In this document: positions 11,333-47,715 of the stretch, piece by piece
Numbering within the stretch: position 1 is the stretch's first letter
Layout: every line of letters starts with the position of its first letter
Assembly: GCA_001781555.1 (NCBI GenBank)
Contig: MFLP01000034.1
Location: forward strand, 1,788 to 49,613
Direction: 5' to 3'
DNA from: Candidatus Kaiserbacteria bacterium RIFCSPHIGHO2_12_FULL_53_13
Lineage (GTDB): Bacteria; Patescibacteriota; Minisyncoccia; Phycocordibacterales; UBA2100
Length of the DNA stretch: 47,826 bases
Translations under genes and position numbers: made by a program
Notes under the pieces: model-generated
Told to the model about the DNA's origin: nothing
Databases searched by the model: none
What the model saw: only the letters and a program-made list of their open reading frames with translations

Positions 11333-11716
11333 ATGTTAAAGATACGGATGCAGAGGATTGGCCGCATAAACATGCCGGCGTATCGCATTATTGTCGCCGA
11401 GCACACTCGTGGTCCGAAGACAGGCAACATCGTGGAGAAGGTGGGCACGTACAACCCGAAAAGCAAGGAGCGCGTACTGGATGCGGAGCGCATCAAATAC
11501 TGGTTGTCCGTGGGCGCCAAAGCGTCCGGAACTGTACACAACATGCTTATATCCGCTGGAATTATCACGGGGAAGAAGATAAACGTCCTTCCTAAAAAAC
11601 ATCCGCCAGTTGTCGAGAAGATCGAGGAAAAAGTAGCCCCAGAGGCAACTCCAACGGCGGAACCTGTAGCGGAAGAGAAAAAAGAAGAAGTAGCAGCGGA
11701 AGCAGTAACACAATAA
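11333..11716 (+). CDS. rpsP: 30S ribosomal protein S16 with an Ala/Glu/Lys-rich C-terminal tail
   Basis: MLKIRMQRIGRINMPAYRIIVAEHTRGPKTGNIVEKVGTYNP matches bS16. Confidence 0.93.
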   Translation: MLKIRMQRIGRINMPAYRIIVAEHTRGPKTGNIVEKVGTYNPKSKERVLDAERIKYWLSVGAKASGTVHNMLISAGIITGKKINVLPKKHPPVVEKIEEKVAPEATPTAEPVAEEKKEEVAAEAVTQ

Positions 11717-11731
11717 TCTTGAGTGTCTCAA

Positions 11732-12181
11732 TCAGAGGTCTTGCTTCACGATGTGTTTTCTCAGGAAAGACTTTGTGTTTTTTATTATCTCGTCTTTATT
11801 TTTTGGATCGCTTTTGGCAATTCCTGTAGCAAATATATACATAAGCTCGTTTTTTACCGTGAGCCATCTTTGATTCTGTGCAAGAAAATAGAGAAGTGTC
11901 ATCACGGCAACACGCTTGTTTCCATTTTGGAAGGGATGATTCTTGATCATTAAGTAAAAAAGTATTGCTGCCTTGTCTTCAAGACGCGGGTAGAGACTCT
12001 TACCTCCAAATTTCTGAAACGGGTTTTTTAAACAACTTTCGAGACGGTCAGGAAATCGAGTGTTGAATGGGGGTATTGGTTCGTCCCACTCCATAAGTTC
12101 CCGCGCAAGGCTATGGGCAACACTCTCAATTTCAATGAGCGTTAACCCCCTGATGAAAGATCGTCTGGGCTTGATCTTCAT
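11732..12181 (-). CDS. doc: Doc (death-on-curing) / Fic-fold toxin
   Basis: 149-aa ORF with the Fic/Doc core motif HPFQNGNKR. It lies 6 nt downstream of a small HTH gene, the classic type II toxin-antitoxin layout. Confidence 0.8.
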   Translation of the reverse strand: MKIKPRRSFIRGLTLIEIESVAHSLARELMEWDEPIPPFNTRFPDRLESCLKNPFQKFGGKSLYPRLEDKAAILFYLMIKNHPFQNGNKRVAVMTLLYFLAQNQRWLTVKNELMYIFATGIAKSDPKNKDEIIKNTKSFLRKHIVKQDL

Positions 12182-12187
12182 AGGAAC

Positions 12188-12454
12188 TCACTCCCTGCCA
12201 AGACGTCTGAAAGTCACGTGATACTCCTTCACCGCTCTCTTGACGATATTGTTTATCTCTTCTTTTTTTGCGGGAGTAATAAACATCCCAAGAATCGCCT
12301 CCAGTTCTTTTTTCCGGATAATATAGTTCCTACCAACCTTCTCTGCCTTTATTTTTCCTTCCTTGATTTTTTTAAAGACAGCTGTCCTACTCACTCCCAT
12401 TAATTTGGCTATTTCAGACGTGGAAAAATGGCTCTTTTCCGGATTTTTGTTCAT
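12188..12454 (-). CDS. Helix-turn-helix (excisionase/MerR-like) DNA-binding protein, putative antitoxin of Doc
   Basis: The HTH reads FSTSEIAKLMGVSRTAVFKKIKEGKIKAEKVGRNYII. ATG 12454 is preferred over the ORF-track GTG 12460. Confidence 0.7.
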   Translation of the reverse strand: MNKNPEKSHFSTSEIAKLMGVSRTAVFKKIKEGKIKAEKVGRNYIIRKKELEAILGMFITPAKKEEINNIVKRAVKEYHVTFRRLGRE

Positions 12455-12456
12455 TA

Positions 12457-12484
12457 CCACAGGTTAACACATGTTAACCTGTGG
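12457..12484. promoter_or_regulatory. 28-bp palindrome, candidate operator of the HTH-doc operon
   Basis: CCACAGGTTAACA-CA-TGTTAACCTGTGG has 13-bp perfect arms. It begins 3 nt upstream of the antitoxin ATG on the minus strand. Confidence 0.6.
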
Positions 12485-12496
12485 TGCGAACATTCA

Positions 12497-12525
12497 TTGA
12501 CAAAATAGAGGATATCTGCTATTCT
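12497..12525 (+). promoter_or_regulatory. Sigma70-type promoter with a ~190-nt leader for the DEAD-box helicase
   Basis: TTGACA (12497-12502) is followed by a 17-nt spacer and TATTCT (12520-12525). There is no other gene between it and ATG 12718. Confidence 0.55.
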
Positions 12526-13998: not shown

Positions 13999-14010
13999 AG
14001 AGACGCTCGC

Positions 14011-14107
14011 CGGGCATTACACTTTTGCCGTCGCTGTCTGTGCGTGCTCGCACAGCGCTGCCTCTTGCGCCGTCGCGCTGCGAGACACGGCAAAAGCGCA
14101 ATGCCCG
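14011..14107 (+). repeat. Intergenic palindromic repeat, family A, copy 2
   Basis: The outer stem is CGGGCATTACACTTTTGCCG ... CGGCAAAAGCGCAATGCCCG. The core has hairpins CTGTGCG-TGCT-CGCACAG and GCGC-CGTC-GCGC. It is about 93% identical to the reverse complement of 23385-23481. It starts 12 nt after the helicase stop codon. Confidence 0.85.
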
Positions 14108-14197
14108 TACTCACTTGAGCTTGGATTTGACAAATTGCTATTCGAGGTGGATAGTATCAGGCAGTGGTTGTCGGCTGATTCTGTGGCAATAGAAAGG

Positions 14198-18762: not shown

Positions 18763-18820
18763 TCCTTTGCGCGCCGCCCGCCAGTTTCCCCAAAATGCTG
18801 AATTGCGGAATGTCGTTATG

Positions 18821-18842
18821 CTAGTGTTTTGCAAAAGACTAG
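18821..18842. promoter_or_regulatory. Near-palindromic 22-mer, candidate ArsR operator (copy 1)
   Basis: CTAGTGTTTTGCAAAAGACTAG is self-complementary at 20/22 positions. It lies 8 nt upstream of the TAGAAT -10 (18850-18855) of the ArsR gene. Confidence 0.55.
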
Positions 18843-18861
18843 CATAAGGTAGAATTGCAAC

Positions 18862-19143
18862 ATGACGAATGTTAGTAGTGAATACAGAAGGCTAGAGCGG
18901 ATTGTAAAAGGATTTGCGAATCATCGGCGGCTTCAGATCTTGGATCTTTTGAAGCGGGAGCCGGAATTGTCGGTAGAAGACATTTCCGAACGGCTGGGGA
19001 TTGGATACGAGAATGCATCTGACCATGTACGCAAACTCGCGATAGCCGGGCTTGTCCTCAAGCGCAACGAGGGAAGCTCGGTGCGGCACAAGCTTACGCC
19101 CCGCGCGGAGTCTATACTAGTGTTTTGCAAAAGACTGCAATAA
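18862..19143 (+). CDS. ArsR/SmtB-family winged-helix transcriptional regulator
   Basis: 93 aa. FANHRRLQILDLLKREPELSVEDISERLGIGYENASDHVRKLAIAGLV is typical of ArsR. TAGAAT lies 6 nt before the ATG. Confidence 0.85.
   Translation: MTNVSSEYRRLERIVKGFANHRRLQILDLLKREPELSVEDISERLGIGYENASDHVRKLAIAGLVLKRNEGSSVRHKLTPRAESILVFCKRLQ
19117..19136. repeat. Second copy of the ArsR-associated palindromic 20-mer
   Basis: CTAGTGTTTTGCAAAAGACT lies inside the last codons of the ArsR gene and is identical to 18821-18840. Confidence 0.6.
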
Positions 19144-19270
19144 GAAAAGAGTGGGAAGAAGGGGAAATTGAAGTGGGAAGGGGGAGATGAAGTGGGGTGA
19201 AGAAAAGAGTGTAGAGAATGGGAAGGGGGCGAGGCGGGGAAAACGACATGAGGAAGTAGGGGCGGAGCAA
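19141..19270 (+). repeat. Polypurine, G-run-rich tract
   Basis: There is no C between 19141 and 19229. GAAGTGGG(G)AAG-type units recur, with GGG to GGGGG runs throughout. It lies between the ArsR and MazG-like genes. Confidence 0.8.
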
Positions 19271-19308
19271 GTTTCCCAAAAATAAGGAATTGTGGGATAT
19301 TTGGGCTA

Positions 19309-19656
19309 ATGGCAACGTGGAGTGATATTCAGAAGAAGGCGATTGAATTTCGCGATGTGCGGGATTGGAAGCAGTTCAATAATCCGAAAGACTTGGCCTT
19401 GTCGCTTGTTCTCGAAGCGGCGGAGGTCTTGGAACATTTTCAGTGGAGAAACGGAAAGGAGATGGAAGAATATGTCCGCACGCACAAAGGAGAAATTGCG
19501 GAGGAACTCGCGGATGTTTTGTATTGGCTCGCAACAATGAGCCATGATTTGAAAATCGATTTGTTTAGGGCATTTGAAGCGAAAATGAAAAAGAACGAAA
19601 AGAAATACCCGATCAAGAAGTCCAAGGGCAAGCACACCAAGTACGATAGGTTATAG
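19309..19656 (+). CDS. MazG-like nucleotide pyrophosphohydrolase
   Basis: 115 aa. RDWKQFNNPKDLALSLVLEAAEVLEHFQW and EIAEELADVLYWL match the all-alpha NTP-PPase (MazG/YpjD-like) EExxE/D pattern. Confidence 0.75.
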   Translation: MATWSDIQKKAIEFRDVRDWKQFNNPKDLALSLVLEAAEVLEHFQWRNGKEMEEYVRTHKGEIAEELADVLYWLATMSHDLKIDLFRAFEAKMKKNEKKYPIKKSKGKHTKYDRL

Positions 19657-19717
19657 GCAGAAAAGGAGCATCTGAGCGGATTTCCCCAAAGTTCGTATTT
19701 GTGGGATGATCCTATTG

Positions 19718-20551
19718 ATGGCTATTCCAACATACGATAATTTGTTTAACCCAGTCATTGAAGCCTTAAAGAAACTTGGAGGTTCAGGATCAGTTTCTGA
19801 GATTGAAGAGAAAGTCGCCGTATTACTCAAATTGACCGATGAAGAAGTAAACGAAATACACCGAGGTAACAGGTCGAAGTTGAGCTATCGACTTGCTTGG
19901 TCGAGAAATTATCTGAAACGTTACGGAATCTTGGAAAATTCCTCGCGTGGAGTTTGGGCTCTAACGCCATTGGGAACGAAGACAGGAAAAGTCGATAAAG
20001 ACGAGGTCAACAAGGCCGTCAAACTGCTTGACCAAGCGCTCGTCAAGGGGAAGAAAGATGGTAAAAAAGTTATAGACGATGAAGAGCCAGGTTTATGGCA
20101 AGAAGAAATGTTGGAGCAACTTCTGAAACTTTCTCCAGCCGCGTTCGAGCGACTATGTCAACGTATACTACGCGAGTCAGGCTTTGTTCAAGTAGAAGTC
20201 ACTGGCCGATCCGGTGATGGAGGTATTGATGGTCGGGGCATTATAAAGATAGCAGGTCTTCTTAGCTTCTACATTATTTTTCAGTGCAAACGGTATACGG
20301 GCAGTGTATCTGCTCAGCAGATCAGAGATTTCAGAGGTGCGATGGTCGGGCGAGCTGATAAAGGACTTGTTATAACTACTGGGACTTTTACGAGAGACGC
20401 AAGGCAAGAAGCTACAAGGGATGGTGCGCCGCACATCGATCTTATCGAGGGGGAGGAGTTAGTTGAGAAGATGAAGGAATTGCAACTTGGTTTGAAAATT
20501 AAGATGGAGGAATCGGTTGAGGTTGATAAGGATTGGTTTAAAGCTTTCTAA
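19718..20551 (+). CDS. mrr: Mrr-family type IV (modification-dependent) restriction endonuclease
   Basis: The Mrr_N-type start is MAIPTYDNLFNPVIEALKKLGG. The catalytic region reads GDGGIDGRG...IIFQCKRY...GLVITTGTFT. ATG 19718 is preferred over the ORF-track 19706. Confidence 0.85.
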   Translation: MAIPTYDNLFNPVIEALKKLGGSGSVSEIEEKVAVLLKLTDEEVNEIHRGNRSKLSYRLAWSRNYLKRYGILENSSRGVWALTPLGTKTGKVDKDEVNKAVKLLDQALVKGKKDGKKVIDDEEPGLWQEEMLEQLLKLSPAAFERLCQRILRESGFVQVEVTGRSGDGGIDGRGIIKIAGLLSFYIIFQCKRYTGSVSAQQIRDFRGAMVGRADKGLVITTGTFTRDARQEATRDGAPHIDLIEGEELVEKMKELQLGLKIKMEESVEVDKDWFKAF

Positions 20552-20567
20552 ACCAACCCAACTAATT

Positions 20568-21518
20568 ATGAAGAAGAGAGAAAAGAAGAAGAAACAGAAT
20601 TCATGGATAGCAAAAGCCGCAGACTCTATTAAAAGGGCTGGACTTGCGTACAAAACTGTTACCACCAAGAGTTCACAGCATCTTTTGATAAATGCCGACT
20701 GTGAGGACGGGATGCGTGCGCTGCCGGAAGGCAGTGTGGATCTTATTATCACAGATCCACCCTACAACCAGAATCTCGATTATGGTCCGAAATTCAACGA
20801 CAAAAAATCCCGCGGTGAGTTTTATTCCTGGTTTAGAAGACGACTTTCATATATTCCCAGTCTATTAAGTTCACGCGGAAGTTTTTATCTTATTAGCTAT
20901 CCAGAAATTAATGCCAGAATCTTACCGTTTCTTGAGGACGAGCTGGGCCTAAACTATCGTGCATGGATCACATGGCATTATCCAACAAATATCGGTCATT
21001 CGAAAAAGAACTTCACACGCAGCCAAAGATCCATCTTATTTTTTACTAAGGAAAAAGATAATTATATTTTTAACCGGGATATTTTACTCCAGCCATATAA
21101 AAATCCAACCGCACCTGTTATAAGAGAACGAATCAAACAAGGGGCTAAAGGTCGGGTTGCATATGACACACTTCGTTTATCTGATTTATATGAACTCAAT
21201 AAATTGTCATACGATGTACAGATATTAGATCTATTAAAAAACAATTCTCCTGAGAGACTAAGAAATCTGGACGGGCACTTTACCCCTTTCAACGATGATA
21301 AGAAGTTGAAGAGAAATGATCATCCCTGTCAGTTGCCCTTGAGCTTGCTCACACTTTTTATACAAGTTAGTAGCAACACAAATTCTCTGATCCTGGATCC
21401 ATTCGCCGGCACTTTTACCACCTCCGCTGCGGCTGAAAAATTAAACCGCTCTTCTGTGGGAATAGAGCTTAACAAGAAATTCATAGATTTCGGTTCAAAG
21501 AGATTATCTCTCATATGA
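20568..21518 (+). CDS. Beta-class N6-adenine/N4-cytosine DNA methyltransferase
   Basis: Motif IV DLIITDPPYN precedes motif I ILDPFAGTFTTS, which is the beta-class permutation. Start 20568 is preferred over the ORF-track 20517, which overlaps mrr. Confidence 0.85.
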   Translation: MKKREKKKKQNSWIAKAADSIKRAGLAYKTVTTKSSQHLLINADCEDGMRALPEGSVDLIITDPPYNQNLDYGPKFNDKKSRGEFYSWFRRRLSYIPSLLSSRGSFYLISYPEINARILPFLEDELGLNYRAWITWHYPTNIGHSKKNFTRSQRSILFFTKEKDNYIFNRDILLQPYKNPTAPVIRERIKQGAKGRVAYDTLRLSDLYELNKLSYDVQILDLLKNNSPERLRNLDGHFTPFNDDKKLKRNDHPCQLPLSLLTLFIQVSSNTNSLILDPFAGTFTTSAAAEKLNRSSVGIELNKKFIDFGSKRLSLI

Positions 21519-23260
21519 AATATGGACTTGCACAAGCAATAAACATCTTCAATCTAGGGGGAATATTTGCTTGTGATATTGAAGAAACAAAACTTCTAAT
21601 CTCGAAAAGATCCGAGACAGTAAGTGCAGGGAAAATAACGAAGCAAGGAGAGGAGATTGAACTTGACGGCTTTGCGATGAAGGGGGATGTGTTATGGCTC
21701 ATAGAATATACGGACTCGAGGAGCTTAGACACAAAAGATTTTGACAACTTTATTCAAAAGATTACTCTCTTGGGAGACGATGAAAACAAGATGCTTATAG
21801 AAGCCATTAATAAAATCTGGTCAAAATATAAAGTAAAAGAAACGAAACCGAACATCACAGTTAAGACGCAATTAATCGGTCTCTACATTGCGCCGATGAA
21901 AGGTGAGGCTGATGAGGCCACACTCCTCCAAAGAATACCGAGAGACAAGAGAGACAAGACAATATTTTTTTGGGGTCGCGATACTTTTGAGTATTTTTAC
22001 TCCATATGTGAGAGCACCAGACGAAATGCACAGTATGAAATTTACGGTTATTTCAATCTGGAACCTAAGGCCGTCTTCGAGAAGAAGGAAGTCGAAGACC
22101 AAGAGGGCTATGTGTCGAAACCCTATGTAGATATTGAGAAAGGTATTTTCGGATGTCGAATGATAATTTTTAAGATTAGCCCCACATCACTTCTCCGGAG
22201 ATGCTATGTGTTGCGCAACGAGGGCTGGAAAAGCGACAGTTTCCAGCGAATGATAATTCAGGAGAAGTTGAAAAAACTGCGCTCGTACATTGTCGCAAGG
22301 GATGATTCTTCATTTGCGAATAGCATCATTCTCAGTTTGGATCCGAATATTTCGTCAAACGTTTTGAAAGAGGATACAAAGTCAATACTGCTTCCGAATC
22401 GTTTTGCAAGCTTATGTATCATTGATGGTCAACACAGACTTCTCGCGTTTACGCAAGATTTTTATGGAGAGAGCGATCCTTCAGAAAAGGAAAATGATGG
22501 GAAAATTAAGAGACTTGCCGAGAATGAAGATTTAATTGCCACGCTGTTGGTTTTTAATGGAAAACCGCAAGAAATATTGCGTAAACAGACTCAACTTTTT
22601 AGAGATATTAATGCGACCCAAACAAAAGTAAAAAGCGACTTCCTCTATAATCTTGAAGAGATTATAGAGCCTAAGAACCCATCGTCAGTTGGAAACAAGA
22701 TTATCAAATCTCTCAACAGGAGAGAGAACGGTGTATTTCATGAGAAGTTTTCTGTTAAATGGTATCAAGGTGGGAGAATAAAAAGATCTAGTGTCATCCA
22801 ATGGGGATTGGTCGACTTGGTCAAAAAAGACGGACTTCTTTATAAGTGTGCTCCGCGCTCTACGATAGAGAAATATTCAAAGGGTGACGTCGAAGATTAT
22901 GTAGTCTTTTGCGCGAATTCGCTGGAAGACTTCTTTTACGCCATCAGACAAACATTTAAGAAGAAGTATCCTAAGAAAAAGAGCGTGTGGGATTTTTCTT
23001 CAAAAAGTAAACTAATGCTGCTATCGACATCAGCAATCGTGGGATTCCTTAGGCTTTACAGGCATTTCTTGCATTCGAAGATTTTAAAATCCAATTACGA
23101 GGAATACCTTTCCGGTATTGAAGTCAAATTCAACAAAGTTTCTTACAAGTATAGTTCCAGCCAATGGGCAAAGTTAGAGGAGGCAATGTTTGATGACATT
23201 CGCGAAAAATACGGATCTTTTGGCGATGAGTCACTAATAAAAAGATCAAAGAAAATCTAA
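21515..23260 (+). CDS. DGQHR-domain (DndB-like, ParB/Srx-fold) protein with an unassigned ~200-aa N-terminal domain
   Basis: 581 aa. The DGQHR-domain pattern is present: SFQRMI..., IIDGQHRLLAF and LFRDINATQTKV. The ATG overlaps the methyltransferase stop (ATGA at 21515-21518). Confidence 0.75.
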   Translation: MKYGLAQAINIFNLGGIFACDIEETKLLISKRSETVSAGKITKQGEEIELDGFAMKGDVLWLIEYTDSRSLDTKDFDNFIQKITLLGDDENKMLIEAINKIWSKYKVKETKPNITVKTQLIGLYIAPMKGEADEATLLQRIPRDKRDKTIFFWGRDTFEYFYSICESTRRNAQYEIYGYFNLEPKAVFEKKEVEDQEGYVSKPYVDIEKGIFGCRMIIFKISPTSLLRRCYVLRNEGWKSDSFQRMIIQEKLKKLRSYIVARDDSSFANSIILSLDPNISSNVLKEDTKSILLPNRFASLCIIDGQHRLLAFTQDFYGESDPSEKENDGKIKRLAENEDLIATLLVFNGKPQEILRKQTQLFRDINATQTKVKSDFLYNLEEIIEPKNPSSVGNKIIKSLNRRENGVFHEKFSVKWYQGGRIKRSSVIQWGLVDLVKKDGLLYKCAPRSTIEKYSKGDVEDYVVFCANSLEDFFYAIRQTFKKKYPKKKSVWDFSSKSKLMLLSTSAIVGFLRLYRHFLHSKILKSNYEEYLSGIEVKFNKVSYKYSSSQWAKLEEAMFDDIREKYGSFGDESLIKRSKKI

Positions 23261-23384
23261 GTATTCCCTGCAGAGGCGTCTTGCATCAAATCGACGCCGG
23301 TGGACATTGGGCGATTCCAACCTCGTTTGTTTGTTCAGCTAGGTTCATTACTTGAGCCGTTCGCTTTCCCAGCTTAAGCGAGCT

Positions 23385-23481
23385 CGGGCATAGCGCTTCT
23401 GCCGTGTCTAGCAGCGCGACGGCGCGAGAGGCAGCGCTGTGCGAGCACGCACAGACAGCGACGGCAGAAGTGCTATGCCCG
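23385..23481 (-). repeat. Intergenic palindromic repeat, family A, copy 3 (inverted relative to copy 2)
   Basis: The outer stem CGGGCATAGCGCTTCTGCCG ... CGGCAGAAGTGCTATGCCCG pairs 19/20 plus one G-T. The core is nearly identical to the reverse complement of 14011-14107. Homology extends about 20 nt further (CTCRCTTRAGCTKGG). Confidence 0.85.
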
Positions 23482-23743
23482 ACGAGTATCCCTATTGCCA
23501 CCCCCCACCATTTTGTGCTATCCTGGTAATGTGAAATATAGAGGCGTAAACATACAGAATCGCCGTAGGACGCCTTATTTGAGGGTGTTTTAGAGCGTTT
23601 GCATTTATCCAGATCAAACTTTCCGAAACGTCCTCAAAAATGAGGCCGTTTTTGATTAATAGGGTAAAATTACACAGTAAAATAATATGAAAGCACAATA
23701 TCCGTACCACAAGGTAGCTTCATACGAAGGAGATAAAGACAGC

Positions 23744-24949
23744 ATGAAGAAAGTCGTGCTTCTCTATTCTGGCGGGCTTGATACTTCCGTTTTATTAAAA
23801 TGGATACAAGACGAATACAAAGTCAAAGTTATTACGTTAACTCTGGACCTGGGCCAACAGCATGATGACTTGGATGCCATCAAGCAGAAAGCCCTGAAGT
23901 TCGGAGCGGTCAAGGCGATAGCACTTGATGTCAAAGAAGAATTCGCGAACGAGTACCTTGCTAAGGGCATTAGGGCCAATGCCCATTACCAGGGCGAATA
24001 CCATCTTTCAACCCCGATGGCTCGGGCGATTTTGGCGAAGAAAGCTGTAGAGGTTGCGGAGAAGGAAGGTGCCGATTGCATCGCTCACGGCTGCACCGGA
24101 AAGGGGAATGACCAAGTGAGGCTTGATGGTTACATTCTGGCACACAGTCCGAAAATGAAAATAATCGCGCCAGTCAGGGAATGGGGAATGGACAGAAAAG
24201 AAGAAATCCAGTACGCCAAAGAACATGGCATACCAGTTCCTGCAACAGCCGACTTTCCTTATTCGGATGATGACAACATGGGTGGCATTACCTGGGAGGG
24301 CGGAGAAATTACAGATCCGAGCCTCATTGCTCAAGAGGAAAGATTTCTCACTACGTACACGCTTCCCAAGAATGCGCCGGATAAGCCGGAACTCATAAAG
24401 TTGGAATTCAAGCAGGGCGTTCCTGTCGCCTTGAACGGAGAAAAATTGAGCCTCGCCCCATTGCTCATGAAATTAAACAAGATGGCAGGAAAACACGGAG
24501 TCGGCACCTTTCAGGTTCTTGAAGACAGATTGATAGGACTGAAAAACAGAGGAGTCTACGAACATCCTGGGCTTCATACGATCATCGAAGCCCATCGCTA
24601 CTTGGAAAGATACGTCTCAACAAAAATCCTGAATGAAGTGAAAGAAACGATAGACACTCGCTGGGGATATCTCTGTTACGGCGCCTATTGGTTTGATCCC
24701 GTCATGGATGCCATCAACGCCTTCAATGATTCTGTGAATGAAAAGGTAACCGGGGAGGTAACCGTCAGACTCTTCAAAGGCAACACTGCAGTGGTCGCGA
24801 TGAAATCGCCTTTTGCACTTGCGTTTGCCTCCTTCAACAATGCCGAAGGCTACAAATTCAACGTGAATGCAAGCGCCGGGTTCGTTGAGCTATATTCGTT
24901 GCAGATGAAGATCGCGAACGAGATAGCGCGGAAGAAAAAGAAAAAATAA
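23744..24949 (+). CDS. argG: Argininosuccinate synthase
   Basis: The N-terminus is MKKVVLLYSGGLDTSV and the protein contains GCTGKGNDQVR. AAGGAG lies 11 nt upstream of ATG 23744. The ORF-track start 23687 would add 19 atypical residues. Confidence 0.92.
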   Translation: MKKVVLLYSGGLDTSVLLKWIQDEYKVKVITLTLDLGQQHDDLDAIKQKALKFGAVKAIALDVKEEFANEYLAKGIRANAHYQGEYHLSTPMARAILAKKAVEVAEKEGADCIAHGCTGKGNDQVRLDGYILAHSPKMKIIAPVREWGMDRKEEIQYAKEHGIPVPATADFPYSDDDNMGGITWEGGEITDPSLIAQEERFLTTYTLPKNAPDKPELIKLEFKQGVPVALNGEKLSLAPLLMKLNKMAGKHGVGTFQVLEDRLIGLKNRGVYEHPGLHTIIEAHRYLERYVSTKILNEVKETIDTRWGYLCYGAYWFDPVMDAINAFNDSVNEKVTGEVTVRLFKGNTAVVAMKSPFALAFASFNNAEGYKFNVNASAGFVELYSLQMKIANEIARKKKKK

Positions 24950-24990
24950 TTTCCTAACACCTAAACCCAAATCCCTATCACCTAATCTTT

Positions 24991-26280
24991 ATGGCAAAGC
25001 TCTGGAAAAAGTCAGAGGAAAAACTGCATCCGTCCGTTGAGAGATATACGGCCGGGACCGATCACGTATTCGACATGCAATTAATGCCGTTTGATATTGA
25101 AGCCACCCGCGCGCATGCCAAAGGCCTTCAAAAAATAGGGATTCTTACGAGCGAAGAGCTCTCAAAAATACTCTCGGCCCTCGACAGCTTGGAAAAAGAA
25201 TTCGCGAACGGGGAGATAAAAATCACTCCGGCGGACGAAGATTGCCACACCGTGATGGAGAACTACCTCGTGAATAAACTCGGCGACACGGGGAAGAAAA
25301 TACACACCGGCAGAAGCAGGAATGACCAGGTGCTTGTGGCCCTGCGCATGTATATGCGCGCTTGCGCGCGTGAATTACATGGCGCAAGCGTGGAACTTGC
25401 CTCGAGTTTTCTTGATAAAGCGGAGAAGTACAAAGATATGCCGATGCCGGGCTACTCGCACACCCAGCAAGCGATGCTCACAAGCGTCGGCCATTACCTG
25501 CTGGCCTTCACGGAGAGTTTGCTGGACGATGCAGACCATCTTGCGCTAGTCCTCAAGCACATCAACAAGAGCCCTCTTGGTTCTGCCGCTGGATTCGGGG
25601 TCTCAATTCCATTGGATAGGGAATTCACCGCAAAAGAACTCAAGTTCGACGGAGTGCAGGTCAACTCTCTTTACTGCCAGAATTCACGCGGCAAATTCGA
25701 GAGTGTTTTTATGGAAGCGCTGGCGCAGATAATGCTTAGCTTGGGAAAATTTGCGAACGACATGCTCATGTTCACTTCGAATGAGTTCGATTTCTTCTCG
25801 GTTGATGGTTCGCTTACTACCGGTTCGAGCATCATGCCGCAAAAAAGGAACCTGGATGTCATGGAGATACTTCGCGGCAACGTAAGCGTGGTTCTTGCGG
25901 ACCAGCTCATGGTCAAGGACATTTCAAAGAATCTTCTCTCCGGCTATAACAGGGACCTCCAGCTCCTGAAGAAGCCCGTAATGGAGAGCGTTGAGATAGT
26001 CCGGAGCAGCCTGCAGGTGGCAGGGCTTATGCTTTCAGGAATGACGCCGAATGAAGAAAGCATGCGGGCGAAGATAACGCCCGGCATATTCGCGGCTGAC
26101 ATCGCGAATCAGCTTGTGCAGGAAAAAGGCATGCCGTTCCGCGACGCATACAAGCAGGCGCTTGACCTCGTCTCTTCGCGCCCGGTCGACTTGAAGGAGA
26201 ATCTCGATTCAAAGGTAAGCTTGGGAGCACCCGGGAATCTCGACCTCGCTAACTATCGCCGCCGCATAAAAAATGCATGA
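24991..26280 (+). CDS. argH: Argininosuccinate lyase
   Basis: The fumarate-lyase family signature region GSSIMPQKRNLDVMEILRG and TGRSRNDQV are present. Confidence 0.93.
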   Translation: MAKLWKKSEEKLHPSVERYTAGTDHVFDMQLMPFDIEATRAHAKGLQKIGILTSEELSKILSALDSLEKEFANGEIKITPADEDCHTVMENYLVNKLGDTGKKIHTGRSRNDQVLVALRMYMRACARELHGASVELASSFLDKAEKYKDMPMPGYSHTQQAMLTSVGHYLLAFTESLLDDADHLALVLKHINKSPLGSAAGFGVSIPLDREFTAKELKFDGVQVNSLYCQNSRGKFESVFMEALAQIMLSLGKFANDMLMFTSNEFDFFSVDGSLTTGSSIMPQKRNLDVMEILRGNVSVVLADQLMVKDISKNLLSGYNRDLQLLKKPVMESVEIVRSSLQVAGLMLSGMTPNEESMRAKITPGIFAADIANQLVQEKGMPFRDAYKQALDLVSSRPVDLKENLDSKVSLGAPGNLDLANYRRRIKNA

Positions 26281-26398
26281 GTCCCGTTAGAAGTCGCGGA
26301 CGACTAAATATACTAGCAACTATGAACTCAGCATTTATCAACGATAACAAAGTAAGATACGGAGCCCGTTCCGGTTCCGCGTCTTACTTCTAACGGGA
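26277..26398 (+). promoter_or_regulatory. Start-codon clamp element E3 (between argH and argF)
   Basis: The mini-ORF ATG 26277 overlaps the argH TGA as ATGA. The 5' arm TCCCGTTAGAAGT (26282-26294) pairs 13/13 with ACTTCTAACGGGA (26386-26398), whose last A is the argF ATG. A second stem is CGCGGA/TCCGCG. The mini-ORF 26277-26393 (38 aa) ends at the TAA in the 3' arm. Confidence 0.85.
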
Positions 26399-27381
26399 TG
26401 AAACACCTAATTTCTCTTAAAGAACAGAGCGCGGATGATATCCGGGAAATTCTGGATATTGCGTCAGACCTGAAGAAGAAATATCGCGCGGGTATCGCGA
26501 CGAATTTGCTGCCGGGGAAGACTCTCGTCATGCTCTTCCAGAAAAACTCGACGCGGACGCGCCTTTCATTTGAAGCCGGAATGACGGAACTCGGCGGCCA
26601 CGCGATATTCCTGGCGTCATCGCATGCACAGTTGCCGCTCGCGGATTTTAGCGACGAGATACAGGCAATAATGCGATTCGCAGATGTGTTGATGATACGG
26701 TCCATGCACGTCAAAGACGTGCTGACGGCCGCATCATACGACCGCATCCCAGTCATCGATGCTTGCAGCGAGAAATATCATCCATGCCAGGCGCTCGGAG
26801 ATATTATGACGATGTCGGAATATTCCGGTGGACTCAAGAATGTCAAAAAAATCGCGTGGCTGGGAATAGAAAATAACGTGTGCAATACCTTGAAACTGGC
26901 TTGTGCGAAATTGGGCATAGAGGTCGTTCTTGCGACTCCCGAAGTTCATCCGCCAAGCGTTGACAAGGAACTGAACGCGCAGGCTTCCGCGACGGGGAAA
27001 GTGCGGCGCGCTAAACATCCCAAGGATGCCATTGCCGACGCCGACTACGTGCACACCGATACATGGCTCGATGCGGAGTATTTCAATAATCGCACTCCGA
27101 AGCCGGAGTTCAGCGCGGAATTCGAACGGCGCAAGGCCGTGTTCATGCCGTACCAGCTGAATGCGAAACTCATTGATACGTATGCGCCGAAGGCGCGGAT
27201 AATGCACTGCATGCCGATGCACGTCGGGTACGAAATATCACGCGACGCCATCGACCACAAGAACTCCGTCATCTTTGATCAGGCGGAAAACCGCAAGCAC
27301 GTGCAGAAGGCGATCTTGCTCTGGCTTTTGGGCGTAAATATTAATCCTGCAAAACATCGGAAAATAGGGAAGAAGCGATGA
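26398..27381 (+). CDS. argF: Ornithine carbamoyltransferase
   Basis: Motifs STRTR, HPCQ and HCMP are present and the N-terminus MKHLISLKE is typical. Confidence 0.92.
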   Translation: MKHLISLKEQSADDIREILDIASDLKKKYRAGIATNLLPGKTLVMLFQKNSTRTRLSFEAGMTELGGHAIFLASSHAQLPLADFSDEIQAIMRFADVLMIRSMHVKDVLTAASYDRIPVIDACSEKYHPCQALGDIMTMSEYSGGLKNVKKIAWLGIENNVCNTLKLACAKLGIEVVLATPEVHPPSVDKELNAQASATGKVRRAKHPKDAIADADYVHTDTWLDAEYFNNRTPKPEFSAEFERRKAVFMPYQLNAKLIDTYAPKARIMHCMPMHVGYEISRDAIDHKNSVIFDQAENRKHVQKAILLWLLGVNINPAKHRKIGKKR

Positions 27382-27384
27382 CGA

Positions 27385-28437: not shown

Positions 28438-28636
28438 AATATCTTATAGAACCAAATATCTCCCCGACGGGAGATTATTGATAAAAGTATCTTCCCATAC
28501 GGGCTGGATGTGGCACCTTCTCTTTCGAGGGTTGTCGGCGGGTCATCAGGCCAGTTCCTTCACCGCGCTCTTGATACGATATTCAGTTGTGCACACATGA
28601 TAGCAGTCATCGTGCCGCTGTGCAATACTGCCGCAC

Positions 28637-30061: not shown

Positions 30062-31111
30062 ATGAAAAAATTCTTAATTTCGAGTTCGATCGCGGCATTG
30101 CTTCTGCCTGGACTCGCCCTCGCTGATTACAACGACGTAAGCTTGACCGCGAGCACGGTATTAAGCGTTGGCGGCGCAACCTTGAATGTGCACGGCACGA
30201 CCGCGGTCGTGGAGTCAATAACTGTTGGGGCTTCGAGCTTCACAGTGACTTTGCAGCCAAGCTCATCAATCGAGATCCAATCCACCGCTCACCTAACTCT
30301 CGCGACAAATGCGGAACCGGCCTATATAAGCACTAATACCTGCAGTGATACGGAGTCGATACTGAAACTCGTTTCCTCTATGGGTTCTGCGACCATTACT
30401 GTTACTCCTGGAAGTGCATGTAGCGGAACAGCCACAGGGTCCACTAGTAATACCTCAACCACAAGCACTGGTAGCGGCAGCAATGGTGCCCCGGTTGCAA
30501 GCGGCGGAGGCGGTGGTGGAGGCAGTGTCGTCAGAGCAATAACGCCTGAGCTACCTGTAGCAACGCCAGCCGTTTCCACAACGCCCGCAACCACAGTATC
30601 CGCATCCGGCTCTCTCACCGCCGACTTCGGTATTGGAGCAAAGGGCGTGGACGTGGAAGCCCTCCAGAGCTTCCTCGAGGCGAGAGGATTCCTGACTATG
30701 CCGGCAGGAGTTGCAAAAGGAACATACGGTGCTCTGACACGCACAGCAGTCCGCGCCTATCAGCAAAGCAAAGGCATCTCGCAGACTGGCTATGTTGGTC
30801 CGATGACCCGCGCTTCGGTCAATGCTGAACTTGGCGCGGGCACCTCTATGGCGGCTCCAGCATCTGCATCCGCATCCGGCTCTCTCTCCGCCGACTTCGG
30901 CATCGGAGCGAAGGGCAGTGATGTTGAGACACTCCAGACCCTCCTTGAATCGAAAGGATTTCTGACTATGCCAGCGGGGGTTTCGAAAGGAACCTACGGC
31001 GCTCTGACGCGCACCGCAGTCCGGGCATATCAGGAGAGCAAGGGTATTTCGCAGACCGGCTATATCGGCCCGTTGACTCGTGCGGCGGTCAATGCTGAAC
31101 TTGGACAGTAA
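30062..31111 (+). CDS. Secreted protein with two C-terminal peptidoglycan-binding (PG_binding_1-like) repeats
   Basis: The signal peptide is MKKFLISSSIAALLLPGLALA. A Gly/Ser/Thr linker follows. The unit FGIGAKG.DVE.LQ..LE..GFLTMPAGV.KGTYGALTRTAVRAYQ.SKGISQTGY.GP.TRA.VNAEL occurs twice. Confidence 0.8.
   Translation: MKKFLISSSIAALLLPGLALADYNDVSLTASTVLSVGGATLNVHGTTAVVESITVGASSFTVTLQPSSSIEIQSTAHLTLATNAEPAYISTNTCSDTESILKLVSSMGSATITVTPGSACSGTATGSTSNTSTTSTGSGSNGAPVASGGGGGGGSVVRAITPELPVATPAVSTTPATTVSASGSLTADFGIGAKGVDVEALQSFLEARGFLTMPAGVAKGTYGALTRTAVRAYQQSKGISQTGYVGPMTRASVNAELGAGTSMAAPASASASGSLSADFGIGAKGSDVETLQTLLESKGFLTMPAGVSKGTYGALTRTAVRAYQESKGISQTGYIGPLTRAAVNAELGQ
30598..31108 (+). repeat. Intragenic tandem duplication (period ~270 nt) encoding the two PG-binding repeats
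   Basis: ATCCGCATCCGGCTCTCTC...GTCAATGCTGAACTTGG occurs at about 30598-30837 and again at about 30868-31108 with high nucleotide identity. Confidence 0.8.
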
Positions 31112-47034: not shown

Positions 47035-47054
47035 TATACCGATATATCGGTATA
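47035..47054. promoter_or_regulatory. Perfect 20-bp palindrome TATACCGATATATCGGTATA (copy 1)
   Basis: It is identical to 47493-47512 and lies just 3' of the TrpR-like gene. Confidence 0.7.
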
Positions 47055-47492: not shown

Positions 47493-47512
47493 TATACCGA
47501 TATATCGGTATA
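47493..47512. promoter_or_regulatory. Perfect 20-bp palindrome TATACCGATATATCGGTATA (copy 2), candidate operator
   Basis: It overlaps the minus-strand TATAAT (47491-47496), about 31 nt upstream of the TrpR-like ATG. Confidence 0.7.
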
Positions 47513-47572: not shown

Positions 47573-47657
47573 GGAGGCGTCGGATAGTGGTTTATTCCAC
47601 CGCCTTGGAAAGGCGGCATGCCGCAAGGCATCGTGAGTTCGAATCTCACCGCCTCCG
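47573..47657 (+). tRNA. tRNA-Ser (anticodon GGA)
   Basis: The acceptor stem is GGAGGCG/CGCCTCC. The anticodon stem is CCGCC/GGCGG with loop TTGGAAA. A long variable arm CATGCCGCAAGGCATC and T arm GTGAG-TTCGAAT-CTCAC are present. The discriminator is G and CCA is not encoded. Confidence 0.92.
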
Positions 47658-47715
47658 CTCTGAAAAGGAGAAAGCGCAATTATGCAAAGAATTAAATGAG
47701 CTATAATGTACCTTA

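Follow-up and report, generated by a model that had tools for sequence, protein, structure and literature searches.

We analysed a stretch of 47,826 nucleotides (nt) from Candidatus Kaiserbacteria bacterium RIFCSPHIGHO2_12_FULL_53_13 (contig MFLP01000034.1, positions 1,788 to 49,613 of the forward strand), which we call the window. The subject of this report is a gene segment directly 3′ of glmS, and in particular a DNA methyltransferase (MTase) and a DGQHR-domain protein that it encodes. Profile searches of the open reading frames (ORFs) identified five genes on the same strand between the glmS stop codon (18762) and a dispersed repeat at 23367-23493. They encode an ArsR-type regulator, a MazG-like enzyme, an Mrr-family enzyme, the beta-class MTase and the DGQHR protein. 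In GenBank all five products (OGG69307-OGG69311) carry the label "hypothetical protein". An earlier note, made from the sequence alone, had called the same five products, the last as DGQHR/DndB-like, and the profile searches bore out all five calls. We consider it probable, though by no means certain, that this acquired islet provides multi-layer defence and that the MTase and the DGQHR protein form a restriction-modification (R-M)-like module with the DGQHR protein as its restriction component.

The MTase gene (20568..21518, plus strand) encodes a beta-class N6A/N4C DNA methyltransferase of 316 amino acids (aa) that matches PF01555 with an E value of 6.7e-42. The order of its motifs is that of the beta class, with DPPY preceding the FxGxG-type "DPFAGTFTT", and the closest solved structure is M.MboIIA (E 3.5e-24). 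The DGQHR gene (21515..23260, plus strand) encodes the 581-aa candidate restriction component, which scored 66.3 bits against the TIGR03187 cut-off of 58.85 and matched PF14072 with an E value of 2.2e-9. The MTase stop codon and the DGQHR start codon overlap as ATGA, an arrangement of translational coupling. Upstream of this pair lies the gene for an Mrr-family Type IV (modification-dependent) restriction endonuclease (19706..20551, plus strand; Mrr_N E 1.6e-19, Mrr_cat E 3.6e-32). Both the Mrr_N winged helix and the Mrr_cat PD-(D/E)xK domain are present, and the catalytic motif GIDG...QCK can be seen in the translation. An alternative start at the ATG at 19718 corresponds to a 277-aa gene call. 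A PADLOC run, a check that the earlier note had proposed, picked out only Mrr (mREase_IV, E 6.6e-33) and a Type II-class MTase; for the DGQHR protein it gave only weak DpdB/DndB matches.

To find relatives of the DGQHR protein we used a family profile, which returned 184 clusters (50% identity) at E ≤ 1e-30, mostly of 560-620 aa. Full-length homologues with 41-66% identity came from unrelated genomic contexts. In 13 of 13 independent close-family contexts (the window, L010, L012, L013, L015, L177, L178, L179, L180, L186, L187, L097 and L098) an N6_N4 MTase gene is directly adjacent to the DGQHR gene; in L179 the two genes are convergent. These contexts include a Bathyarchaeia element that carries integrase and PrimPol genes, a defence island with AlwI and RadC-Dam, a second cluster downstream of glmS, and a spot beside a Type I system. 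Two distant relatives (22-24% identity, hhalign probability 99.7-99.8% over full length) are also paired with an MTase. One, with the protein pair WP_130774219/WP_130774220, is on a Rhizobium ruizarguesonis plasmid next to IS66. The other comes from Chantilly, a temperate Akkermansia phage, where it neighbours the phage integrase. MTase and DGQHR identities co-vary (66/54, 61/66, 58/47, 52/42 and 27/24%). As a control we used 78 metagenomic loci whose proteins matched only the central DGQHR domain in a metagenome scan, and an N6_N4 MTase was found near none of these other DGQHR-domain proteins (0/78).

The other genes of the segment do not follow the pair. Mrr_cat genes are near the module in 3 of the 13 contexts and differ in architecture, and ArsR and MazG genes are near it only in the window. 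The earlier note had remarked on an unusual pairing of Mrr with a methyltransferase. This view did not hold: the comparison of contexts points to the DGQHR protein, not Mrr, as the conserved functional partner of the MTase.

Several related loci were seen in the course of this comparison. Mrr_cat genes recur near DGQHR genes in L010, L012 and the window, and also on the Cronobacter plasmid pGK1025B_3 (PMC12757443). In L012 (GCA_030603885.1, JAUVWW010000002.1, 1-7740) the MTase-DGQHR module is found about 4 kb beyond glmS, alongside an ATP-cone-Mrr_cat gene. This is another defence cluster downstream of glmS, independent of the one in the window and similar in content. On the Agrobacterium sp. 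S7/73 plasmid (L182, NZ_CP072139.1, 4695-9828) two adjacent DGQHR-domain genes are followed by radical SAM and ATP-binding genes, with no MTase.

We modelled the DGQHR protein with AlphaFold2 from a 26-sequence alignment (predicted local distance difference test, pLDDT, 89.2; predicted template modelling score, pTM, 0.86). The model has three parts. The N-terminal PD-(D/E)xK-like domain (aa 1-185, 21515..22069, plus strand) was assigned from a model of the isolated domain (pLDDT 90) and Foldseek. Matches of this isolated alpha/beta domain in the PDB were almost all PD-(D/E)xK nucleases, with Can2 the best (E 6.3e-4, probability 1.0). Further matches were the Shedu/SduA nuclease domain, the R2 RLE domain, arenavirus cap-snatching endonucleases, BspD6I and VC1899. 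A Pfam scan of the same domain at E ≤ 1 gave only scattered sub-threshold hits to NERD and Card1_endonuc. The second part is a putative nucleoside triphosphatase (NTPase) domain of the DGQHR type (DndB-type, ParB/Srx fold; aa ~200-410, 22112..22744, plus strand), with ParB-N and Noc among its structural matches. The third is a predicted helical C-terminal domain (aa ~420-581, 22772..23260, plus strand) with no recognisable relatives.

The DGQHR superfamily has been defined by a QR pair, the DGQHR pentapeptide and an FxxxN motif (PMC4619093). The protein from the window has all three, as Q244-R245, D304-R308 and F362...N366, in keeping with its assignment to TIGR03187. Over 145 full-length family members these motifs are 99-100% conserved. 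In the N-terminal domain, (E/D)49, D51, E64, Y160 and E175 are conserved in 94-98% of the same members and T66 in 86%. Such conservation of acidic residues within a fold like that of restriction endonucleases speaks for a metal-dependent site that is active.

The composition of the islet core is foreign. The G+C content (GC) of 19661-23300 is 0.407, compared with 0.531 ± 0.018 in windows of the same size elsewhere, where the minimum is 0.495 (z = -6.8). In tetranucleotide usage, the distance to the rest of the window is highest at the islet, with 0.46, and is 0.14-0.26 elsewhere. GC at third codon positions (GC3) is 0.42 for Mrr, 0.39 for the MTase and 0.43 for the DGQHR gene. The flanking genes have higher values (glmS 0.73, metK 0.63, argH and argF 0.64; comparison range 0.51-0.73), and the ArsR and MazG-like genes, at 0.55 and 0.60, deviate only mildly. 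The earlier note had judged 19.7-23.3 kb by eye to be richer in A+T and different in codon style, and had suggested sliding-window GC and tetranucleotide analysis. Both measures differ significantly, and the Mrr-MTase-DGQHR core (19.7-23.3 kb) is compositionally foreign.

The word GATC gave the same picture. No other word is avoided as strongly in the host part of the window, where 111 GATC sites stand against 204 expected (z -12.7); z values in the flanks are -7 to -10. In the islet core there is no avoidance (19 observed, 19.8 expected). We considered GATC as the target of the MTase-DGQHR module. However, relatives without the module in the examined loci also avoid GATC, and the flanks of most loci that bear the module do not. 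GATC avoidance does not track the module, so GATC was dropped as a target and kept only as a marker of foreignness. Strong GATC avoidance was also seen in many, not all, Kaiserbacteria and Patescibacteria relatives (e.g. L017, L018, L023, L024 and L049), which suggests a long exposure of the lineage to GATC-specific restriction, unrelated to the islet. There is a second AT-rich patch at about 11700-12460 (GC 0.43 at 11501-12500), with a Fic-domain gene on the minus strand and an HTH_17 gene. The two genes probably form a Fic toxin-antitoxin-like pair, and the patch is probably a further acquired islet of small size.

To locate the insertion, we compared glmS loci from 80 species and mapped the window proteins onto them. 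In the closest relatives (L017, L018 and L021, glmS 74-78% identical) only 10-27 nt separate the glmS stop from the convergent metK stop. After metK these relatives have Maf, CofD and HhH-GPD genes, in the same order as in the window beyond 27385. Their homology to the window ends at the glmS stop and restarts at the metK stop. Three other relatives (L019, L020 and L025) carry 1-3 kb of unrelated, non-defence cargo in the slot between glmS and metK. Since glmS abuts metK in the closest relatives, the variable interval is 18763-27384, 8.6 kb in length, and includes the arg operon. It is composite, consisting of the defence islet, the dispersed 127-nt repeat and argG-argH-argF (23687..27381, plus strand). 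Transposase, integrase and recombinase genes were absent from the segment in both the ORF list and the profile searches, as the earlier note had stated, and the islet begins right after the glmS stop, where that note had placed it. The segment is a horizontally acquired defence islet, inserted directly 3′ of glmS, without mobility genes. Its composition differs significantly from that of the host, and elsewhere in the clade its five genes do not stand in synteny beside glmS. On these two points the earlier note would have let its claim fail, and both came out in favour of the claim.

The arg operon had been taken as the housekeeping flank that resumes after the islet. It is not the ancestral flank: in all 80 glmS loci compared, argG, argH and argF are missing from the 10 kb around glmS. 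Because its composition (host-like GC3) and GATC avoidance (z -4.2) are those of the host, argG-argH-argF either was acquired earlier or reached the variable slot by rearrangement. The islet is present on all 17 contigs whose glmS is identical and on all 23 contigs whose DGQHR protein is identical. No empty-site variant was present among the 17 contigs, and the islet is fixed in the sampled population.

The earlier note had also pointed to attTn7, the classical site 3′ of glmS. We found no tns genes, no TGT...ACA ends, no TnsB-site arrays, no 5-bp target duplication and no flanking direct repeats, and the attTn7 idea was not sustained. Three motifs containing TTGYGGRAT are 400-490 nt apart, have one orientation and each lie just upstream of a gene.

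These three motifs belong to a 27-nt element, TTTCCCMAAA-N(8-16)-TTGYGGRAT, which occurs three times in the window where none is expected, and only upstream of arsR, mazG and mrr. Copy 1 (18785..18811, plus strand) lies upstream of arsR. Copy 2 (19272..19298, plus strand) stops 10 nt short of the MazG ATG and has the form of an extended -10 element (TGnGATATT). Copy 3 (19681..19707, plus strand) stops at the same distance, 10 nt, from the alternative Mrr ATG at 19718. The element has partial dyad symmetry and resembles a promoter/operator; no match to it was found in 176 loci from other organisms. With the same count, 0 matches in 176 other loci, it was rejected as a general Kaiserbacteria promoter. 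An extended -10 element that ends 10 nt before the ATG of both the MazG-like gene and the alternative Mrr gene suggests leaderless mRNAs for these two units. The MTase gene starts 16 nt past the Mrr stop and has no motif copy of its own; therefore Mrr, MTase and DGQHR are probably one operon. From the motif positions, the small ArsR-type protein probably controls all three transcription units.

The ArsR/SmtB-type winged-helix regulator has 93 aa (18862..19143, plus strand; HTH_5 E 6e-7; NF033788 55.0 bits, which equals the cut-off of 55). When its translation was inspected, the alpha3 metal motif ELCV(C/G)D was missing and "PELSVEDIS" stood in its place. Without the alpha3 cysteine motif, metal sensing is unlikely. 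A 32-nt sequence in the arsR leader (18817..18848, plus strand) is 88% identical to 19113-19144. It copies the last arsR codons (...LVFCKRL(Q/A), then stop) and is itself a near-perfect 30-nt palindrome. The repeat could be a relic of tandem arsR duplication or of recombination, or an operator inside the coding sequence. Between arsR and the mazG-like gene is a polypurine (G/A-rich) spacer of about 120 nt (19145..19265, plus strand; GC skew +0.29) with the potential to form H-DNA or a G-quadruplex. The MazG-like all-alpha NTP pyrophosphohydrolase (19309..19656, plus strand) has 115 aa and matches PF12643 with an E value of 5.5e-15; it had no PADLOC match.

The dispersed repeat that follows the islet, called A3, is a structured element of 127 nt (23367..23493) with a predicted RNA fold of -75.4 kcal/mol (z -5.9). 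An inverted copy with 87% identity is at 13999-14125 and a partial copy at 1455-1513. Its GC is host-like, and it lies just past the right edge of the foreign core. It is intergenic, downstream of gene 3′ ends, and forms a very stable branched hairpin. It looks like an element of the repetitive extragenic palindrome (REP) or miniature inverted-repeat transposable element (MITE) type and had no Rfam match. At the other end of the slot, an S-adenosylmethionine (SAM) riboswitch (RF00162, 54.3 bits) at 28484-28580 on the minus strand lies upstream of metK, the right-hand ancestral border. Further away, direct repeats of 237 nt at 30598-30834 and 30868-31104 (81% identity, 270 nt spacing) probably belong to a coding region that is internally repetitive. 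A perfect 20-nt palindrome, TATACCGATATATCGGTATA, occurs twice in identical form, at 47035-47054 and 47493-47512, with the copies 438 nt apart. Both lie a short way upstream of tRNA-Ser(GGA) (47573-47658), where GC is lower.

We propose the following model for the islet. It would be read as three transcription units with one motif copy each, namely the ArsR-type repressor, the MazG-like enzyme and the Mrr-MTase-DGQHR operon. Mrr would be a stand-alone Type IV enzyme that cuts DNA with foreign methylation patterns. The MTase would put a mark on host DNA, and the N-terminal PD-(D/E)xK-like domain of the DGQHR protein would cleave DNA without this mark. Recognition of the methyl mark and release of the enzyme from self DNA would fall to the ParB-fold DGQHR domain, working as a switch driven by NTP. 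The two layers would be complementary, with Mrr directed against foreign-methylated DNA and the MTase with the DGQHR protein against unmethylated DNA, and the MazG-like enzyme would accompany them.

Precedents for such a switch come from phosphorothioate systems. DndI and SspE are ParB-like NTPase-nuclease fusions that form the restriction arm of these systems and sense modification through the NTPase domain; DndI is toxic without modification (PMC11662687). A DndB-like protein has been found to bind both ATP and GTP (PMC12704722). A bolder version of our model, which we offer tentatively and hold to be possible rather than probable, makes the MTase-DGQHR module the founding case of a methylation-based counterpart of phosphorothioate-sensing DndI and SspE. 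The DGQHR NTPase switch would read the methyl mark and gate an atypical PD-(D/E)xK (E-x-T) nuclease. The family would be widespread in bacteria, archaea and phages, with the roughly 184 clusters at 50% identity described above, and missed by current defence-finder models. In this genome of the Candidate Phyla Radiation (CPR), one ArsR-controlled regulon would hold it together with Mrr and the MazG-like enzyme. Within this version the MazG-like enzyme might keep modified deoxynucleoside triphosphates out of host DNA and so prevent self-restriction.

A number of observations weigh against a nuclease-based R-M module. The main caveat is in the N-terminal domain itself, which has E-x-T and lacks the canonical lysine of E-x-K. 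Its structural matches have low TM-scores (~0.35), and a Foldseek search with the full-length protein gave no match at E ≤ 1e-3; the best match of the isolated domain is of marginal significance. No sequence profile ties the domain to a nuclease family; searching PDB sequences with the family profile returned nothing. A scan of IMG/VR with the family profile found no relatives of the close subfamily. The evidence for ArsR control is the position of the motif copies and their partial dyad symmetry. The best-known DGQHR proteins are not nucleases: DndB has a regulatory role, and DpdB is an ATPase that helps modification. No member of the family has a known activity, methylation motif or phage phenotype.

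Several of these points suit another reading, in which the DGQHR protein is a non-nuclease like DndB or DpdB, an NTP-dependent DNA-binding regulator or loader of the MTase. The pair would then be only a modification module (epigenetic or anti-restriction), and the N-terminal fold would be inactivated and bind DNA. We regard this as rather unlikely. The family-level matches are only to DGQHR, DndB and DpdB models, DndB is a repressor and DpdB an ATPase required for modification. The ExK lysine is missing, and inactive restriction endonuclease folds exist, such as Pfam NA-iREase1, which we saw among the Mrr matches. The moron-like position in the temperate phage would suit an MTase-only module as well. 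However, the conservation of (E/D)49, D51, E64 and E175 extends down to about 20% identity and is the pattern of a metal site, not of decay. Strict co-occurrence and co-variation, in colinear as well as convergent gene orders, are the hallmark of a toxic partner that needs its cognate MTase, and 580 aa in three conserved domains are more than a regulator would need. A different activation logic is also conceivable. As in SspE, the DGQHR nuclease might need host methyl marks to become active and then nick incoming DNA, which would make the system modification-sensing and not classical R-M. SspE relies on phosphorothioate marks in self DNA for its antiphage activity and is not toxic alone (PMC11662687), and the fusion of a ParB-like NTPase to a nuclease is common to both. 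This explanation fits no better than release at marks as in DndI, the DGQHR and DUF262 domains are different branches of the fold, and the nuclease is PD-(D/E)xK-like here and HNH in SspE. We find it distinctly improbable.

Two further explanations concern the islet and not the module, and both are very improbable. If the islet were stripped Tn7-like cargo at attTn7 with Mrr and the MTase as the linked pair, one would understand why it starts within 23 nt of the glmS stop and why Mrr, MTase and DGQHR are probably co-transcribed and similar in GC3. The same ingredients, MTase-DGQHR and an Mrr_cat gene, also stand a few kb past glmS in the unrelated genome L012. This explanation is already largely refuted by the lack of tns genes, Tn7-type ends, TnsB-site arrays and target duplication, by the unrelated non-defence cargo at the same slot in other relatives, and by the context comparison, in which the few neighbouring Mrr_cat genes differ in architecture and the MTase-DGQHR pair is invariant. 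We give no more credence to an ancestral interval that was lost in close relatives, with its AT-richness due to gene-specific constraints. The presence of the islet on every contig with identical glmS or DGQHR protein, with no empty site in the population, would agree with it, as would the near-host composition of the ArsR, MazG and arg genes. Against this, three relatives have the tight glmS-metK junction and three others have different cargo. In GC, GC3, tetranucleotides and GATC avoidance the core is unlike the host, and the nearest MTase-DGQHR relatives are in unrelated contexts, including the integrase-bearing archaeal element.

Taken by itself, the islet is nothing unusual, a defence island in a hotspot. 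The value of the finding is rather in a two-gene system that is testable, apparently uncharacterised and widely distributed. In the searchable literature DGQHR proteins are mentioned only in passing, and we found no functional description of the MTase-DGQHR pair. Two such mentions place a DGQHR gene beside an adenine MTase in Mycobacterium abscessus and beside an Mrr-cat enzyme on the Cronobacter plasmid (PMC12757443); one of the two states "unknown function". If our model is true, NTP-switch nucleases that read a DNA mark would extend from phosphorothioate (DndI, SspE) to ordinary methylation. It would describe a new kind of R-M system, in which a ParB-fold NTPase with a PD-(D/E)xK-like nuclease depends on a cognate methyltransferase, and the ParB-CTPase-fold field would gain a new functional class. 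The work also documents layered defence in a very small CPR genome. For scanning methods the lesson is that the apparent partner, Mrr, was wrong, and that comparative context gave the true pair and the insertion boundaries.

We compared the islet and its module with known systems. As at the glmS-downstream integration hotspot (attTn7), the islet starts immediately 3′ of glmS and the cargo of the slot varies among relatives. Unlike attTn7 insertions it has no Tn7 machinery, ends or target duplication, and the slot is set by convergent glmS and metK. The Mrr protein has the Mrr_N plus Mrr_cat architecture and the catalytic motif of E. coli Mrr; here, however, it shares an operon with an MTase and has to tolerate the product of this enzyme.

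With DndB and DpdB the DGQHR protein shares the DGQHR domain, its signature motifs and an association with DNA-modification genes. It is about 200 aa longer than these proteins and has the extra N-terminal nuclease-like domain, and other DGQHR proteins are not linked to an MTase, as the control loci showed. It scored 17 bits against the DndB equivalog cut-off of 328 (TIGR03233) and 33.7 bits against the DpdB cut-off of 300 (NF041060), so that it belongs to neither. No dndACDE genes were found in the window or related loci, and no dpdA/TGT-family gene nearby in the window.

Type II R-M systems with a beta-class MTase, such as MboII and RsrI, resemble the module in having a beta-class N6A/N4C MTase with an adjacent, co-varying partner, which in the module is putatively PD-(D/E)xK-like. 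Gene order is likewise variable (colinear with overlap, or convergent), and the module is mobile across bacteria, archaea and phage. The SAM-binding and DPPY motifs are present in the MTase, and linkage and co-variation are conserved across hosts. In contrast to these systems, the putative endonuclease has 580 aa and a conserved ParB-fold NTPase domain, and NTP dependence would be atypical. The catalytic triad would have E-x-T in place of E-x-K, and the DGQHR protein was matched by none of the restriction-enzyme models of Pfam, NCBIfam or PADLOC.

The remaining comparison is with DndI and SspE, and with the Type IV enzymes GmrSD and BrxU. In profile searches the DGQHR protein had no DUF262, HNH or DUF1524 match, so it is not a member of the GmrSD/SspE/DndI group. 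Its ParB-like domain is of the DGQHR/DndB branch (PF14072/TIGR03187), whereas theirs is DUF262 (DGQQR), and its putative nuclease is N-terminal and PD-(D/E)xK-like, whereas theirs is a C-terminal DUF1524 HNH domain. Its partner is a single amino-MTase, and the mark would be methyl rather than phosphorothioate. What they have in common is a ParB/Srx-fold NTPase domain, with the DGQ(H/Q)R signature, the QR pair and FxxxN, in one polypeptide with a nuclease domain (putative in the DGQHR protein), genetic coupling to a DNA-modification module, and a place in defence islands.

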